Origin: an uncultured Candidatus Saccharibacteria bacterium
GTDB taxonomy: Bacteria; Patescibacteriota; Minisyncoccia; Phycocordibacterales; Zambryskibacteraceae
Assembly (NCBI GenBank): GCA_964364225.1
Contig: CAYIKP010000002.1
Location: 1-54,488, forward strand
DNA: 54,488 bases
Direction of reading: 5' to 3'
Shown here: positions 4,535 to 13,887 of the stretch, piece after piece
Numbering within the stretch: the first letter of the stretch is position 1
Layout: each line of letters begins with the position of its first letter
The notes under the pieces: model-generated
The model's database searches: none
Told to the model about the DNA's origin: nothing
The model's input: only the letters and a program-made list of their open reading frames with translations
Translations under genes and position numbers: made by a program

Positions 4535-4801
4535 ATGCGAATGGTTTCCACAGCGAAGTATCGGGCCGGAGAGGATATTGGCACTTGGGTCCGCGCAGTC
4601 ATCGTAAATGAGCTTGCGATTGAGGAGGGGGTATTAAAACCCGACGCTCGATTTGGACACGAAATCAACTCCGACAGTCTGGATTTGATTGAGCTTGAGC
4701 TTGAGAGGGTCTTCGACATCTGCATCTCTGATGATGATATCGATGGAATTAGAACGGTCCAAGACATGGTTTGGTATGTGGAAGGCAGACTTCCACACTA
4801 G
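4535..4801 (+). CDS. acyl-carrier-protein-like small protein (orphan)
   Basis: 88 aa. ELAIEEGVLKPDARFGHEINSDSLDLIELELERVFDICISDDDIDGIRTVQDMVWYVE matches the ACP helix II DSLD motif. GC is visibly higher than the flanks and the gene has its own terminator. Confidence 0.55.
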   Translation: MRMVSTAKYRAGEDIGTWVRAVIVNELAIEEGVLKPDARFGHEINSDSLDLIELELERVFDICISDDDIDGIRTVQDMVWYVEGRLPH

Positions 4802-4822
4802 GGGCCGGGTTTAGTTATTTAG

Positions 4823-4858
4823 AAACCGCGCGACATTTCTGTCGCGCGGTTTGTTTTT
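4823..4858 (+). terminator. intrinsic terminator
   Basis: aaaccgcgcgac-atttct-gtcgcgcggttt followed by gttttt. Confidence 0.75.
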
Positions 4859-4911
4859 ATTTTTGTTTTTCTAAGAATTCAAATAGGCCAAGTTAGACGC
4901 CGTTATGGCAC

Positions 4912-4940
4912 TTGACAAACCATGTGATAGGGTGTATACT
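4912..4940 (+). promoter_or_regulatory. near-consensus sigma70-type promoter upstream of the DGR target gene
   Basis: TTGACA (4912-4917), 17-nt spacer, TATACT (4935-4940). Confidence 0.55.
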
Positions 4941-4973
4941 AAAAAGAGTTAAGTCCTTTAAGAAAACCACCAC

Positions 4974-5026
4974 TTCGCCATAGCTTTTAGCACTCCATTT
5001 CTTGGAGAATTAAAAGCTATGGCGAA
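4974..5026 (+). promoter_or_regulatory. 16-bp perfect stem-loop in the 5' UTR of the DGR target gene
   Basis: ttcgccatagctttta (4974-4989) pairs with taaaagctatggcgaa (5011-5026). The loop carries ctcc..ggag. A second ctcc-tattt-ggag hairpin overlaps the GGAG just upstream of the ATG at 5077. Confidence 0.6.
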
Positions 5027-5076
5027 ACACACTCGGTGTTAGTCCTCTAGCAGGCTCCTATTTGGAGAAATAGACC

Positions 5077-5736
5077 ATGTCCACAAAAGACATGCTCGGT
5101 CCGCTTCCGCGGGCACTCGTCGGTGTGCCGAACAATCGGCAAGGTATCATCCTCGACATCGCCAACCGTCTCAACACGGATAGCGAATCGGGTGAAGTAT
5201 TCCACGGAGACCTCGCGAAGTTCGTGCGGTCGTGGAAGAAGACAGCGACCACGAAGCCCCGCATCCTCTCCCTCATCTCGGCTGGGCAGTCAATCGAGAT
5301 TGGTGAGATGGACGGCAGGGAGACGCTCGCCAAGGCGAAGGACGTCTTCACTGGCTACGTTGACCCAGATTTCAAAAACTACTGGGGACTCGACGTCGCT
5401 GGCAAGGCGACTGCGAAGACGCAAGTCGAGGTTCACGAGATGGTTGGCGATGCAGATTTCAATGGCATCTTCAACAGTCTCGAGCGTCCTCTCGACGAGC
5501 TTTGCTTGACGCAGGCACAGATCAAGCGCTTCGCTCGCGACAACCGCAACTGGTTGCGCACGGACGGCTTTGCCACAGTCTTCCTGTTCAAGGAAAACGG
5601 CGAATTCTTCGTCGCGCGCGTGGACGTCAGCGGCGGCCGGCTTAGGGTGTTCGTGCGCCGGTTCGAGGACGACGATGTCTGGAGTGCCGAGAGTCGTCTT
5701 CGTGTGGTGGTTCCGCAACAGACGCTTGGGGTCTAG
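5077..5736 (+). CDS. DGR target (variable) protein, 219 aa, no recognisable family
   Basis: The C-terminal 40 codons are the VR. A sample line hand-counts to about 62% GC against AT-rich flanks. GGAG lies 9 nt upstream of the ATG. No signal peptide or TM segment is visible. Confidence 0.85.
   Translation: MSTKDMLGPLPRALVGVPNNRQGIILDIANRLNTDSESGEVFHGDLAKFVRSWKKTATTKPRILSLISAGQSIEIGEMDGRETLAKAKDVFTGYVDPDFKNYWGLDVAGKATAKTQVEVHEMVGDADFNGIFNSLERPLDELCLTQAQIKRFARDNRNWLRTDGFATVFLFKENGEFFVARVDVSGGRLRVFVRRFEDDDVWSAESRLRVVVPQQTLGV
5600..5719 (+). repeat. DGR variable repeat (VR)
   Basis: Ungapped match to 6029-6148 (offset 429). It differs at 21 positions, 20 of which are adenines in the TR. It ends in the shared A-free 16-mer tcgtgtggtggttccg. 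Confidence 0.88.
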
Positions 5737-5766
5737 TACTCTTGACCCTTGGGTGCCCTGGCACTT

Positions 5767-5793
5767 GGGCCCTCGGAGAAATTCCGGGGGCCC
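5767..5793 (+). terminator. GC-rich stem-loop downstream of VR (terminator and/or homing-associated hairpin)
   Basis: gggccctcgga-gaaat-tccgggggccc (11 bp with one G:T), 31 nt after the target stop and 48 nt after the VR end. Only a weak T-run follows. Confidence 0.5.
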
Positions 5794-6028
5794 AATTCAT
5801 TTGTATAATAAATATGTGTTCATAAGAATGCTTCGGCTAAGGCTTGAGCGACGTGAATACATGAAGATATTTTTGAGAGTTTCGTCGGGTATGCCTTGCG
5901 AAAGAGTGGAAATATTTTTCATAACAAAAAATAATTTAGTTGGTGTTGTATGTTGGTGGACTTATATGTCCCAAGTGAGATTCAATCCTGAGACTATTCG
6001 AAGGATGGTGGTATGGATGGCATACAAC

Positions 6029-6148
6029 ACAAAATCTTCGTCGCGAACGTGAACGTCAACGACGGCCAGCTCAAGGTGAACGTGAACCGGTTCGAGAACG
6101 ACAATGTCTGGAATGCCGAGAATCGTCATCGTGTGGTGGTTCCGAAAC
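6029..6148 (+). repeat. DGR template repeat (TR)
   Basis: Read in the target frame it has six AAC and three AAT codons (..ANVNVNDGQLKVNVNRFENDNVWNAENRH..). It lies in a decayed, start-less copy of the target 3' end (open frame about 5992-6189). Confidence 0.88.
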
Positions 6149-6159
6149 TAAGGCTATTT

Positions 6160-6185
6160 CTCCCGCTATTTTGGCGGGAGTTTTG
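6160..6185 (+). terminator. hairpin plus T-run immediately after TR
   Basis: ctcccgc-tattttg-gcgggag then ttttgc. The avd-like stop codon (6166-6168, minus strand) overlaps the 3' end of the 5' stem arm and the start of the loop. Confidence 0.5.
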
Positions 6186-6547
6186 CTAGAAGACCTTTTT
6201 TCCATCCACCAAGCTGTCTGCCAATTTCTCCAAGCTGTATTAAAAAGGAGGAGTATTTTTCTGTTGGTATGAGTTTATTTTCCCACGCAAGTTGGCTAAA
6301 AAATTTTAATATATCGAGTTTAGTTATTGCTTTGTTGAGTAAAGGAATTTTATGCTCTAGTGATAAATAGCTTAGGCAAAACGTGAGTTCTAGTGTTTCA
6401 ATAAATGTTTGTTCGATTTTATTTCCAATTCCGAAACGTTCAACTTTCGGAAAATCACGATGTAAAGCTAGCCAGACCTGATATGTTTCTTTTATTTTGA
6501 GAATTACCTGTGGTAATTCTCGGGGGGGGGGTAGTATTTTGATACAT
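6166..6547 (-). CDS. avd: Avd-like four-helix-bundle accessory protein; frame lacks a start codon unless the C10 tract shifts
   Basis: The minus frame is open from 6552 to 6166. The product (..LPQVILKIKETYQVWLALHRDFPKVERFGIGNKIEQTFIETLEL..LDILKFFSQLAWENKLIPTEKY..LGEIGRQLGGWKKG) resembles Avd/23S-IVS four-helix-bundle proteins. No ATG, GTG or TTG occurs in frame. The ATG at 6547-6545 is out of frame by one nt across the homopolymer. Confidence 0.7.
6499..6531. repeat. 10-bp hairpin abutting a G10 homopolymer
   Basis: gagaattacc-tgt-ggtaattctc (6499-6521) followed by gggggggggg (6522-6531), in the avd/RT divergent region. Confidence 0.85.
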
Positions 6548-6560
6548 ATGTATCAAAATA
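6535..6560. repeat. 26-bp perfect palindrome containing both divergent ATGs
   Basis: tattttgatacat|atgtatcaaaata is centred on CATATG. The plus-strand ATG at 6548 starts the RT. The minus-strand ATG at 6547-6545 starts the short frame upstream of avd. Confidence 0.85.
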
Positions 6561-7522
6561 TCATATCAGTAGAAAACCTGCTTGTTTCGTGGAGGGAGTT
6601 CTTGCGTGGGAAAAGAAAGCGTGCAGATGTGGCGGAATTTTCTTTGAGATTTTCAGAAAATATACTCCTTTTGTATAAGGATTTAATGGATAAAACATAT
6701 AAGCACTCCTTTTATTCAGCCTTCAACGTTTCCGACCCAAAACCTAGAAATATACACAAGGCCAGTGTTCGAGATAGGCTTCTTCATCACGCAATATATA
6801 AAGTTTTGTATCCATATTTTGATAATAGATTCATTTACGATTCCTATTCGTGTAGGAATTTCAAAGGAACACACAAGGCAATGGAGAGATTTAAACAATT
6901 TGGATATACAGTCTCAAAAAATAATACAAAAACTTGTTGGATTTTGAAGTGTGATGTTAAAAAATTCTTTGCTTCAGTCGACCAAAAAATACTCATTGAA
7001 ATTTTAAAGAGACATATTAAAGATGAAGATACAATTTGGCTTCTTGAGAAAGTAATAAACAGTTTTAACTCAGGAATAGCTGGAAAGGGTCTACCTCTTG
7101 GAAATTTGACCTCACAGCTTTTGGTAAATATCTATATGAATGAATTTGACCAATATGTTAAACATAAACTCAAAGTTAAATACTACATAAGATACGCAGA
7201 TGATTTTTTAATACTTCACCTAGATAAACAATATCTAACCGCTAATTTACGATATATAGCAAATTATCTAAATCAAGAATTAAAACTTCAATTACATCCA
7301 AACAAGGTGTTTATAAAAACCCTATCTTCAGGAATTGATTTCTTAGGTTAGGTTCACTTTCCGAATCATCGAGTTTTAAGGACATCAACCAAACGGAAAA
7401 TGATACGAGAGCTAATGGAGACAGATAACAACTCTGAAACAATGCAGTCCTATTTAGGAATGCTTAGGCATGGAAATACTCACAAGATAGAGCGCGATTT
7501 ATTCGATATGTCGAACAAATAA
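6548..7522 (+). CDS. DGR-type reverse transcriptase, interrupted by an in-frame TAG at 7349-7351
   Basis: Motifs PKPRNIHKASVRDRLLHHA, YSCRNFKGTH, LKCDVKKFF, GLPLGNLTSQLLVNIYMNEFD ((I/L)GxxxSQ) and IRYADDFLIL (YADD). GIDFLG-TAG-VHFPNHRVLR continues in frame to a TAA at 7520-7522. Confidence 0.88.
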
Positions 7523-7523
7523 G

Positions 7524-8564
7524 TTATTTTTGTTTTTCTAAAAACTCAAAGACAGAACGATTAGTGAAGATAGAGCGGACATATTCTTCTGCGCGCATTG
7601 GGTCTGCGTTAGTGTGAACTTTCATTATTTTTTCCACTTCAGATTTTATTTCTTCTGCGTTTGGTTCAAATTTTTCTTCGCGGGCGATTTTTGCCACAAT
7701 CATTTCCAGTTTTACTCTTTTTTCTGCATCGGGGCGTACATCTTTCAATATTTCTTCTTCTGTTTTTTTAATATTTCTTAAATATTCGTCCCATTTTATT
7801 CCTGCATTCCCCAGATCAAACTTAAGCCTTTCAAGAAGAGCGCGAGATTCCTCCACTACTAGCCCTTCTGGTATTTCACCATTTGTATCCGATATTAATT
7901 TTTCTGCAATTTCAGAACGTCTTTTATCTTTCACGCGCAAAGTTTTTTCCATCTTTATATTTTCACGAACATTTTCTTTAAGTTTTTCCAAACTATCAAA
8001 ATTGCCAACTTTTTTTGCAAACTCGTCATTTATTTCTGGATGTCCTTCGTTGCTGTGCCCCCCAGGACCTCCAGCTTTGCCTTCGGCATTCATTATCTGG
8101 TGTTGTAGGTTATGCAGTACAGTTTCTATTTCATCATCTTTTACGGTGTCGTCTGCTTTTTCTTCCTTTATCCCTCCTGCAATTTTTTTGTAATCAGGAA
8201 GGGTAATTTCGGGCATTGTTTCAACCTCTATTTCAAATTCCAAATCATTTTTAGGGGCGATTTTAGTAATACGAATTTTAGGTCTAGAAATAGGCATAAA
8301 TTTTTCTTCCGCAACAATTTCTGGATACGCATCTGCGATGGCTCTTTCGGCGCCCTCCTCAAGAATTGTGAGCTCTCCAACTTTTTCTACAAACATATCT
8401 CTTGGAACCTTTCCCTTTCTGAATCCCGGCAATTCTGCTTTCGTAAGCATTTCATCAAGGGCTATTTTTGATTTTTCTTCAAGGATTTTCCAATCAATAA
8501 CCGCGCTTATGGTAATGCGCATTCCGTCTTTTTTTGATGTGGCTTTTTTATATGTATTACTCAT
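7524..8564 (-). CDS. tig: trigger factor (short form)
   Basis: The N-terminal ribosome-binding motif LPGFRKGKVP is present. At 346 aa, no FKBP-type PPIase segment is apparent between the N- and C-terminal domains. Confidence 0.8.
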   Translation of the reverse strand: MSNTYKKATSKKDGMRITISAVIDWKILEEKSKIALDEMLTKAELPGFRKGKVPRDMFVEKVGELTILEEGAERAIADAYPEIVAEEKFMPISRPKIRITKIAPKNDLEFEIEVETMPEITLPDYKKIAGGIKEEKADDTVKDDEIETVLHNLQHQIMNAEGKAGGPGGHSNEGHPEINDEFAKKVGNFDSLEKLKENVRENIKMEKTLRVKDKRRSEIAEKLISDTNGEIPEGLVVEESRALLERLKFDLGNAGIKWDEYLRNIKKTEEEILKDVRPDAEKRVKLEMIVAKIAREEKFEPNAEEIKSEVEKIMKVHTNADPMRAEEYVRSIFTNRSVFEFLEKQK

Positions 8565-12126: not shown

Positions 12127-13887
12127 ATGCAATTAGACGAAAAAAAATTTAGTGAATTTGCCTTTGATTCTGGGCTAGTTTCCAAGATGGAACTTTTAAA
12201 AGCCCAAAAAGAGGCACAAAAAACGGGAACTGGCCTCGGGGAGGTTTTAATTAAGGACGGACTCATAACAGAGGATGACCTTAGACGTATAAACGCAAAC
12301 CTTTCTGGAGTACCATTTGTTGATTTAAAAAATAAAAACATAAGTTTAGAAATTTTACAGATAATCCCGGAACCAATATCAAGAAAACATAACATTATTG
12401 CTTTCGATAGAGATGAATTTTCTGTAGAAGTGGCACTTCTTCATATGGAAGATTTTTCTTCAATAGATTTTTTAGCCAAAGAATATAGACTCAAGTTTTT
12501 GCCAAGATTTACAGATAGGGAATCAATGAGAGAAGGACTTATTTCATATCAAAAGGGCCTTAAAAAAGATTTCGGAATAAAAATAGAAAAAGAGGCAGAA
12601 AAACTAGCAAAACATTTTAAATCTTTTGGAGACGATACTTCTGGCTCAGCAGACTTAAAGAAAATTGCTGAAGATAAGACAATTTCTCATCTAGTTGATT
12701 TATTTTTAAAACACGCGATATCTCAAGGCGCCGTTGATATTAATTTAGAGCCCCAAGAAGAAGAAACCCTTGTTAGGTATAGGATTGACGGTATTTTAAG
12801 AGAGGCTTTTTCGCTTCCTATAATAATTCATCCACTTATTGTTTTACGACTTAAGTTTCTAGCCGGACTAGATTTAGTAAGCAAATTACCCCAAGACGGC
12901 AGATTCAAAATGGAAACAGGGGACAGATCTTCAATAAAATCGTCTTTTAGGATTAACACTCTACCAACCTCTTTTGGAGAAAAAATGGTTTTAAGAATTA
13001 TTCAAGCGGGGGCACTTGGTTTCAATTTAGAAACACTAGGATTTTATGGTGATGGCCTTGAGGATTTGCACAGAGGCCTAAGGTCTCATTCGGGGCTCAT
13101 AGTTTCTTGTGGTTCTTCACAAACAGGAAAAACAACCACTTTATATACAATTCTTGATGTCTTAAATAAACCAAGCGTTTCTATTTCAACCATTGAGTCT
13201 CCAGTTGAATATCCAATGAGAAGAATTAATCAAACTGAAGTAAAAGAAGATCTAGGATTAACTTTTGTTGCCGGATTAAGGGCCATTCTTAAACAGGATC
13301 CAGATGTAGTGATGGTTGGAAATATTGAAAACAATGAAACCCTCAAACTTTCTATAAATGCATCCGCCTCTGGGAAATTAGTTCTCGTATCCATAAATAC
13401 AAGGACTCCAGATGAAGCGATAGAAAAAATTTTGAATATGGGAGTTGATTCCTTTTCTCTTGCTTCTTCACTCAAACTTTTAATAGGGCATTTTTTGGTA
13501 AAACATTTAAGTGAAGACAAGCAAGAGTATGTTCTTTCAGAAAAAGAGATATCTAAACTAAATAGAGTGGTCGACACTGAAAAAGTTTTAGAGAGGCTTA
13601 AATCAGAAAAAATAATTCCAAAAAATACTTCTTTGGAGAATCTAAAGTTTTTTAAACCTTCGGATGAAACAAAGGAGAATGCCTATACTGGCTTTACTGG
13701 GGTTTTTGAGGTCTTAAATGTTTCCGAGACAATTAAGGAGCTTATTCTTAAGGGCGGATCTCCCGAAGAAATAAGAAGTCAGGCTTTAAAAAATGGAATG
13801 TTTTCTTTTGCTGAAGACGCTTTATTTAAGGCCGTGCAAGGCCTTACCACAATTGAAGAGGTATTTAGGGCGTCATCCGAGATATAA
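12127..13887 (+). CDS. PilB/GspE-family type IV pilus / type II secretion ATPase homologue with degenerate catalytic boxes
   Basis: T2SSE N-terminal domain and Walker A GSSQTGKT. The Asp-box reads IESPVE, Walker B reads DPDVVMVGNIEN (usual GEIRD) and the His-box region reads SGKLVLVSINT (usual TGHLVLSTLHT). Confidence 0.8.
   Translation: MQLDEKKFSEFAFDSGLVSKMELLKAQKEAQKTGTGLGEVLIKDGLITEDDLRRINANLSGVPFVDLKNKNISLEILQIIPEPISRKHNIIAFDRDEFSVEVALLHMEDFSSIDFLAKEYRLKFLPRFTDRESMREGLISYQKGLKKDFGIKIEKEAEKLAKHFKSFGDDTSGSADLKKIAEDKTISHLVDLFLKHAISQGAVDINLEPQEEETLVRYRIDGILREAFSLPIIIHPLIVLRLKFLAGLDLVSKLPQDGRFKMETGDRSSIKSSFRINTLPTSFGEKMVLRIIQAGALGFNLETLGFYGDGLEDLHRGLRSHSGLIVSCGSSQTGKTTTLYTILDVLNKPSVSISTIESPVEYPMRRINQTEVKEDLGLTFVAGLRAILKQDPDVVMVGNIENNETLKLSINASASGKLVLVSINTRTPDEAIEKILNMGVDSFSLASSLKLLIGHFLVKHLSEDKQEYVLSEKEISKLNRVVDTEKVLERLKSEKIIPKNTSLENLKFFKPSDETKENAYTGFTGVFEVLNVSETIKELILKGGSPEEIRSQALKNGMFSFAEDALFKAVQGLTTIEEVFRASSEI

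Follow-up and report, generated by a model that had tools for sequence, protein, structure and literature searches.

To our knowledge, little has been established about how DGR mutagenesis is regulated, above all in the cellular DGRs that abound in CPR bacteria. The DGR in the window (the whole 54,488-nt stretch of DNA that was analyzed) raises a question of this kind: how can its accessory protein Avd be made, and under what control, when the avd frame holds no start codon and is separated from the only ATG by a run of ten cytosines? Three answers had been put forward in an earlier note on this DNA, namely a slipped-strand on/off switch, a programmed frameshift on the C-run and a simple error in the homopolymer consensus.

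The DGR cassette was complete and had the architecture TR-(avd)-RT, which is typical of CPR and is listed as B3 in the part of Wu et al. 2018 (PMC5758913) that was available. Its features are collected in Table 1. The mismatches between TR and VR fell at TR adenines in 19 of 22 cases. The target gene had no sequence match in Pfam, NCBIfam or PDB, and the hairpin that follows its VR is either terminator-like or a DGR target-site hairpin. An Rfam scan of positions 4800-7700 returned nothing meaningful. The neighbor genes of the DGR were clpP, rny, tig, nusA and a pilB-like gene, indicating that the element resides on a cellular chromosome; contigs identical to the window were present in Hainich groundwater metagenomes.

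Table 1. Positions and strands of the DGR features in the window
Feature	Position	Strand	Remark
Target gene, 219 aa, GC-rich (~60% GC)	5077-5736	+	
VR, 3' end of the target gene	5603-5726	+	124-nt direct repeat with TR
GC-rich 14-bp hairpin directly 3' of VR	5765-5795	+	
TR	6032-6155	+	124 nt, 82% identity to 5603-5726
Terminator-like hairpin directly after TR, overlapping the avd stop codon	6160-6180	+	
avd open frame	6552-6166	-	128 codons plus TAG stop
avd leader: ATG 6547-6545 plus 13 nt (MYQNT..)	6532-6547	-	One base out of frame at C10
C10 (G10 on the plus strand), coding for the conserved prolines PP(P) in the N-terminal tail of Avd	6522-6531	-	Proposed hypermutable switch
Avd body (RELPQVILK...LPPK), TAG stop 6168-6166	6166-6521	-	Four-helix-bundle DGR accessory protein
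Hairpin, perfect 10-bp stem plus 3-nt loop, directly 3' of the C-run	6499-6521	-	
26-bp perfect palindrome with back-to-back avd and RT start codons	6535-6560	both	
DGR RT, divergent from avd, in-frame TAG at 7349-7351	6548-7522	+	

When the minus strand was translated, the Avd-like frame was open over all 128 codons, as the earlier note had claimed; it read YICIKILPPPRELPQVILKIKETYQVW...GGWKKGLLAKLPPK up to the stop (in a longer rendering, YICIKILPPPRELPQVILKIKETYQVWLALHRDFPKVERFGIGNKIE...IGRQLGGWKKGLLAKLPPK). The ORF listing gave no ATG, GTG or TTG start in this frame, again in line with the earlier reading. The membership test of an intact avd ORF with a start codon was met neither at C10 nor at the C11 of the sister assemblies. 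The sole ATG had been placed in another frame, which was correct; however, this frame does not stop after 17 codons, as had also been stated, but runs for 30 codons to a TGA (MYQNTTPPPRITTGNSQNKRNISGLASFTS) in the assembled sequence. The plus-strand run was exactly ten G, which makes it C10 on the minus strand. When one C was removed, the ATG was joined to the Avd body and the product (MYQNTTPPRELPQVILK..., 126 aa) passed the Pfam bAvd gathering score, upholding the claim that one C fewer (or two more) repairs the gene, of which the one-C removal was tested. Both avd and RT begin with MYQN.

The tract starts 16 nt after the avd ATG, within the 5' coding region. No other G or C run in the 54.5-kb, 38% GC window exceeds 7 nt, and base composition alone would predict approximately 0.009 runs of this kind. 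CCC made up only 12% of the proline codons in the window, indicating that the C-run is kept at the nucleotide level.

Several other ways of reading the locus were rejected. Treating TGA, TAG or TAA as a sense codon did not rescue it; TAG is a normal stop here, ending 14 of 43 long ORFs as well as avd itself, and no tRNA was found in the window. A downstream or non-canonical start of avd was ruled out because PP(P)RELPQVILK is conserved as protein with synonymous changes, and because many loci have a stop in the Avd frame just before this motif. A start at the M of the 'MKETY' calls was likewise dismissed, as that M is not conserved. The earlier note would have been refuted by orthologues that start downstream at a non-canonical codon and have no homopolymer; this was tested, and no such case was found.

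The repaired protein scored 45.8 bits against Pfam PF22296 (bAvd-like; gathering score of 40) over profile positions 6-106 of 107, and 63 bits (E=2e-17) against NCBIfam NF033474 (DivGenRetAVD), below the strict equivalog cut-off of 80. No match was obtained when PDB was searched by sequence with the Avd profile. By contrast, the fold search did match: the AF2 model (pLDDT of 92.5, four helices) was paired by Foldseek with bAvd 4DWL (TM 0.80/0.90, rmsd 1.8) and also with the DGR RNP 8UB7, with TM values of 0.75-0.90 across the 4DWL and 8UB7 matches. The gene adjoins a DGR RT and a TR/VR pair, and this membership test was met. In the AF2 model, helix 1 begins five residues past the PPP, so that a start any later would cut helix 1. 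According to the same model, the C-run encodes an unstructured, tolerant tail, and the gain or loss of a proline would be tolerable at this distance from the helix. The Bordetella phage DGR cannot do without Avd, which has to bind RT for mutagenic retrohoming; bAvd is a pentamer that binds RT and nucleic acid and is needed for retrohoming (PMC5758913, as far as the available part of that paper goes).

A total of 172 homologous Avd proteins with 58-81% identity were found, some of them named Paceibacterota. Nearly all full-length calls carried T/L-PP(P)RELPQVILK right behind a short variable leader, and many others were shortened to 101-116 aa, indicating that gene callers shorten or miss avd and that DGR surveys probably under-annotate Avd in this clade. 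A census of 104 loci was drawn from 80 species-representative genomes, 22 metagenome contigs, the window and two sister contigs. The check proposed in the earlier note, a comparison with orthologous DGR loci in related genomes, gave a clear answer. A run of C6-C15 (mode C10) was located on the PP(P)R proline codons in 98 of the 104 related Patescibacteria loci, and the tract-bearing loci spanned different Patescibacteria species and metagenomes, with Avd identity down to ~54%. When 451 kb around 80 loci were scanned for G/C runs of at least 8 nt, 71 of the 74 runs were at the avd site. A phage origin of the clade was considered and rejected, since viral contigs held only distant Avd genes (27-29% identity), which had an ordinary SD and ATG start and no run.

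The frame was scored in the 81 loci with an unambiguous leader ATG. The ATG was in frame with the Avd body in only 17 loci (21%), while 30 needed one more C and 34, like the window, one C fewer; 64 loci (79%) were out of frame. This deficit of in-frame states had a binomial p of 0.01, which is not a true probability because the census loci are phylogenetically related. Identical 30-nt leaders preceded C8, C9, C10 and C11, and seven of nine groups with identical leaders were polymorphic in tract length. Leaders homologous to that of the window were in frame in some relatives (L017, L091 and L111) and out of frame in others. The run was absent from six loci. Four of these (L028, L036, L042 and L070) had an ordinary in-frame leader ATG; in L079 a (GA)n repeat took the place of the C-run and the gene was out of frame, and in L053 the site was masked by Ns. 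L070 had no tract in avd, but a G11 was present within its RT ORF and interrupts the RT frame.

Despite the broken frames, the Avd body was free of stops in 104 of 105 loci. When out-of-frame loci were compared with each other, the median dN/dS was 0.11 and the maximum 0.24, including close pairs with a dS of ~0.07-0.1; for the Avd of the window against its relatives, dN/dS was 0.08-0.18. Judged from these substitution patterns, the avd loci are not pseudogenes, and purifying selection acts on Avd in the out-of-frame lineages. In nearly all related loci the RT was intact, giving one continuous match.

Differences in tract length were seen directly between near-identical genomes. In four populations, assembled from different samples, the tract differed while the flanks were 99.4-100% identical. 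The window population was assembled independently from three samples. One assembly was 100% identical to the window, with C10 (L081); another was identical to it over 10 kb save for a C11 (L082); the third, from another well, had C11 and about a dozen scattered SNPs and was otherwise ~99.9% identical over 13 kb (L083). All of them were OFF (C10, C11 and C11), and no ON allele was seen among them. The second population had C9 (L091), C10 (L101) and C8 (L105), the third C8 (L099 and L103) versus C9 (L111), and the fourth C11 (L104) versus C12 (L110). Both states were thus assembled in the third population, where the C9 of L111 is ON and the C8 of L099 is OFF with identical flanks; all four differences between these two contigs were within VR.

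The VR changed as well. The VR of the window and that of L083 differed at 14 positions, 13 of them at TR adenines, and the same pattern of VR diversification was observed in the three other populations. Where pairs from the same population were examined, the remaining differences were mostly in VR, indicating that tract length and VR are the two fast-changing features and that the DGRs are active. A/T runs and all other positions were identical between the same contig pairs. The tract lengths given here are the consensus of short-read assemblies, and coverage was low for the window population (4-11x). Illumina sequencing is troubled by G/C homopolymers. Logan contigs break at the tract, an ambiguous result that could reflect either this difficulty or heterogeneity; with no reads at hand, heterogeneity of the tract within a sample remains unproven.

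Among the three candidates of the earlier note, the slipped-strand on/off switch was the best supported, by the conservation of the tract, the occurrence of all three frames, the length polymorphism and the purifying selection. We consider it probable that the avd C-run is a conserved hypermutable contingency tract that switches the translation of Avd, and so DGR mutagenesis, with the switching rate and the expression being inferred. Slipped-strand mispairing in replication would add or remove a C, and each such change would align the frame of the Avd body with that of the leader ATG or break the alignment. For the window lineage, the ON lengths would be C9 and C12, whereas both assembled lengths, C10 and C11, are OFF. 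The tract could then set, stochastically and reversibly, the fraction of cells whose DGR can rewrite the VR of the target, leaving most cells silent and a minority diversifying. Since Avd must bind RT in Bordetella, the switch would gate DGR mutagenesis if the same holds here. A high rate of length change in vivo, a low output of Avd from OFF alleles and the need of the window DGR for Avd are inferences, and it is not excluded that leaky slippage at the level of RNA or the ribosome supplies Avd from OFF alleles.

The criteria for a contingency locus that can be read from sequence were met, including a 5' tract of mutable length (about 8 nt or more of G/C), length polymorphism and the presence of both frame states in nature; the frequent, reversible switching within a clonal population and the matching change in expression that also define such a locus are inferred. 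The further criterion, that the tract be maintained by selection, was also met, given its presence across species, against codon usage, in a gene that is otherwise intact. On a broader reading, towards which we lean only slightly, the clade has evolved a switch on a hypermutation machine: the C-run keeps most cells OFF as a two-tier form of bet-hedging, the (GA)n of L079 and the G11 of L070 reinvent the same logic, and the run, which also lies in the region upstream of RT, may co-regulate both genes.

The frame could also be restored after replication. A classical programmed frameshift was disfavored because the shift that is needed varies even between close relatives; the criterion of the same offset among orthologues was not met, as offsets of 0, 1 and 2 were found in 17, 30 and 34 loci, and without a conserved offset such a mechanism is unlikely. 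RNA polymerase slippage, or slippage of tRNA-Pro on CCC-C (+1/-1), might instead restore the frame in a fraction of cases. The tract would then be an expression attenuator, allowing a low, tract-set supply of Avd from any length, and this would be compatible with a DNA switch. Runs of at least 9 nt permit the mismatch-free realignment of transcriptional slippage, and +1 shifting occurs at CCC-C. Recoding would fit the VR diversification in populations whose consensus is out of frame, the stable hairpin that abuts the run in the window's clade, and the lack of enrichment of in-frame states (21%), as expected for a tract tolerated via slippage. However, all three offsets (0, 1 and 2) are represented, even where the leaders are identical, whereas the programmed frameshifts known to us hold to a single offset. 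No spacer separates the hairpin from the run, and the more distant half of the family has no such hairpin. The (GA)n of L079 fits DNA slippage better than slippage of tRNA-Pro, and differences in length were seen directly at the DNA level. Recoding is possible but rather unlikely in our judgment.

The contingency switch could be a feature of the family and the window copy nevertheless be dead. The RT of the window matched RVT_1 with E=2.7e-23, but the test of an intact DGR-type RT was not met: the in-frame TAG (FLG*VHF, the asterisk marking the stop) replaces a Trp that is conserved in 73 homologous loci. If the frameshift in avd and this nonsense codon mean that the element has decayed in the window lineage, whatever the tracts of its relatives do, then the normal use of TAG as a stop in this genome, the lack of an ON tract in three assemblies and an avd leader that looks remodelled by a lineage-specific 13-bp inverted duplication would all be in keeping. 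On the other hand, the TAG was shared by both wells, and VR differed at the 13 TR-adenine positions between these otherwise ~99.9% identical populations, indicating that the element was active after the TAG arose or very close to that time. No stops interrupted the Avd body, its dN/dS against relatives was low (0.08-0.18), and TR, VR and the hairpins were intact. We regard decay of the whole element as quite unlikely. The change of VR in spite of the TAG has three possible explanations, namely activity after or near the origin of the TAG, read-through, or recombination; the window copy may be entering decay, although the switch belongs to the family as a whole.

The run might act on RT rather than on avd, if the length of the G-run tuned the spacer of an RT promoter or the RT 5' leader and the effect on the avd frame were secondary. 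Because the start codons of avd and RT are adjacent or overlapping, the RT promoter must lie within the avd 5' region that contains the run, and a weak -10-like TAGTAT follows the run. However, a sigma-70 promoter scan of the region where avd and RT overlap detected no significant promoter for either gene, and thus no RT promoter at the avd 5' region. Further, the run was anywhere from 16 to ~45 nt away from the RT ATG, while its place on the avd codons for the conserved PP(P)R, which are translated, was constant. An effect centered on RT seems very unlikely.

An error of sequencing or assembly, by which the true tract would be in frame everywhere and the consensus off by one, could draw on the proneness to error of G/C homopolymers of at least 10 nt, the low coverage (4-11) and the disagreement between C10 and C11 in the window population, and the broken Logan contigs, but it is hardly credible, because miscalls would have to affect ~79% of 81 independent loci, which stem from many projects and assemblers, while A/T runs and every other position agree between the same contig pairs, because the dinucleotide repeat at the same site in L079 is also out of frame and, among the six loci with no C-run, four have an in-frame ATG, and because a tract kept against codon bias would still need explaining; the simple consensus error of the earlier note thus cannot account for the pattern across independent short-read assemblies.

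Poly-G/C contingency loci are known from Campylobacter, Neisseria, Haemophilus, Bordetella pertussis and the pilus genes of Bifidobacterium breve (PMC8355987, PMC5084427, PMC1891110, PMC9187656, PMC2831843). The avd tract resembles these homopolymeric loci in being a run of 8-12 G/C nucleotides in the 5' coding region, where a change of +/-1 nt toggles the frame, in its length polymorphism among near-identical genomes, in being kept against codon bias and in its location in a structurally tolerant part of the protein. It differs in that avd is an accessory gene of targeted hypermutation and not a surface antigen, restriction-modification enzyme or pilus, that the hosts are uncultivated environmental Patescibacteria and not host-adapted pathogens or commensals, and that the tract has been kept across a deep clade (Avd identity to ~54%). 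Like the dnaX, IS transposase and prfB cases of programmed frameshifting or slippage, the locus has a short upstream ORF joined over a slippery homopolymer and, in the window's clade, an adjacent stable hairpin; unlike them, its offset is not conserved, its hairpin is not universal and the length of its tract varies in DNA.

CPR-typical DGRs are described as B3 by Wu et al. 2018 (PMC5758913) and as DGR clade 2 by Roux et al. 2021 (PMC8144416), in the parts of both papers that were available. The window shares with the B3 DGRs a VR at the 3' end of the target followed by TR, a reverse-oriented avd and RT, the adenine-specific TR/VR mismatches and a cellular chromosomal site in Patescibacteria; it departs from them in the in-frame TAG of its RT and in an avd leader formed by a lineage-specific palindrome. 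The accessible portions of PMC5758913 and PMC8144416 contained no homopolymer, phase variation or frame-broken avd. A full-text literature search, of incomplete coverage, found no description of homopolymers or phase variation in connection with DGR or Avd. We rate as new a contingency locus that controls a DGR; contingency loci as such are already known.

If the switch is real, stochastic control of an essential accessory protein would account for the way cells contain the cost of continually rewriting the target, and the length of the tract would be a read-out of the DGR state that can be scored in metagenomic reads and related to VR diversity. It would then rank among the earliest contingency loci known from Patescibacteria, and the control of one hypermutable element by another would be unusual.

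Two structures flank the tract, and both were exact as given in the earlier note. The hairpin, with its 10-bp stem and 3-nt loop, abuts the C-run without a spacer, being 3' of it in the avd sense and 5' of the G-run in the RT sense. Compensatory variants were found in the window's sub-clade (L003, L023, L026, L031, L032 and L065), for example GAGAAGCACC-aaa-GGTGCTTCTC in L031 and GGAGCACC-ggc-GGTGCTCC in L023. The hairpin was absent in the more distant half (approximately) of the family, and over the whole family pairing was present in 61% of cells versus 57% in shuffles. A role as a universal frameshift stimulator was therefore rejected, and the hairpin is not required for the role of the tract; it may modulate slippage, affect the stability of the mRNA or belong to the RT side.

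The 26-bp perfect palindrome holds both divergent start codons (avd ATG at 6547-6545, RT ATG at 6548-6550). Among 97 loci it was present only in the window population; it was accordingly rejected as a family feature and has no place in the general mechanism. A local inverted duplication (13-bp) of the 5' end of RT, now supplying the start codon of avd, seems to have produced it.

The variable repeat (VR) of the diversity-generating retroelement (DGR) differed at 14 positions between the window (5623-5699) and L083, a contig of the same population; 13 of these corresponded to adenines in the template repeat (TR). Outside the VR, the two contigs, recovered from two groundwater wells, were approximately 99.9% identical over 13 kb. 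On sequence comparison alone, differences at TR adenines between otherwise near-identical contigs indicate that the DGR has recently been active in this population. The same pattern was observed in three pairs of related loci (L099/L111, L104/L110 and L091/L101), in which the differences fell mostly or only in the VR. The GC content of the target gene was higher than the 38% of the genome. No sequence match to this gene was found in Pfam, NCBIfam or PDB, and by sequence its VR did not resemble that of a C-type lectin.

Features of the DGR region, with positions in the window
Feature	Position	Strand	Remarks
DGR target gene	5077-5736		~56-63% GC
GC-rich 14-bp hairpin	5765-5795	plus	shortly 3' of VR
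Terminator-like hairpin	6160-6180	plus	directly 3' of TR; overlaps avd stop
26-bp perfect palindrome	6535-6560		avd and RT both begin MYQN owing to palindrome
In-frame TAG in RT	7349-7351	plus	Trp position of FLG-W-VHF motif

Among 97 loci, the palindrome was found in the window population only. It appears to be an inverted duplication of 13 bp from the 5' end of the reverse transcriptase (RT) gene, which would make it the source of the present start of the accessory gene avd. Given a weak promoter-like site at 5907-5935, the TR may be produced as a short separate transcript. The in-frame TAG in RT was common to every contig of the window population and absent from the other loci; Trp (TGG) was present at this position in 73 homologues, and TAG serves as a normal stop in the window's genome.

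In L079, where the leader ATG of avd was out of frame, the C-run was replaced by a (GA)n dinucleotide repeat of approximately 12 units (about 60-115, coding RERERE). Two contigs of MAG DeMMO2_29 (L068 and L072) carried an identical avd leader, with C10 (in frame) on one and C8 (out of frame) on the other; both terminated directly after avd, and they stem from separate copies of the DGR or from different strain variants. The avd of L070 started at an in-frame ATG without a C-run. The RT ORF of this locus held a G11 run (RT sense, about 2412-2422; coding GGG) at which the RT frame was broken, and which is a possible alternative location for the kind of length-variable switch proposed for avd; the coverage of this contig was low (1.3x).

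Three Logan contigs (L084, L114 and L116; runs ERR3858111 and ERR3858112) ended at the G/C run or a few bases inside it, from both sides, consistent with either mixed tract lengths or a homopolymer poorly covered by short reads. In the databases, many Avd entries from this clade were truncated to 101-116 aa, with an internal M or L as their start. Gene callers probably produced them as artefacts where the tract is out of frame, and avd is therefore likely under-annotated in CPR DGR surveys.

Seven substitutions relative to L083 were clustered within 52 nt (window 12264-12315), all at third codon positions of a pilB-like ATPase gene (12127-13887). Since the contigs were near-identical elsewhere, this cluster probably represents a short recombination tract.
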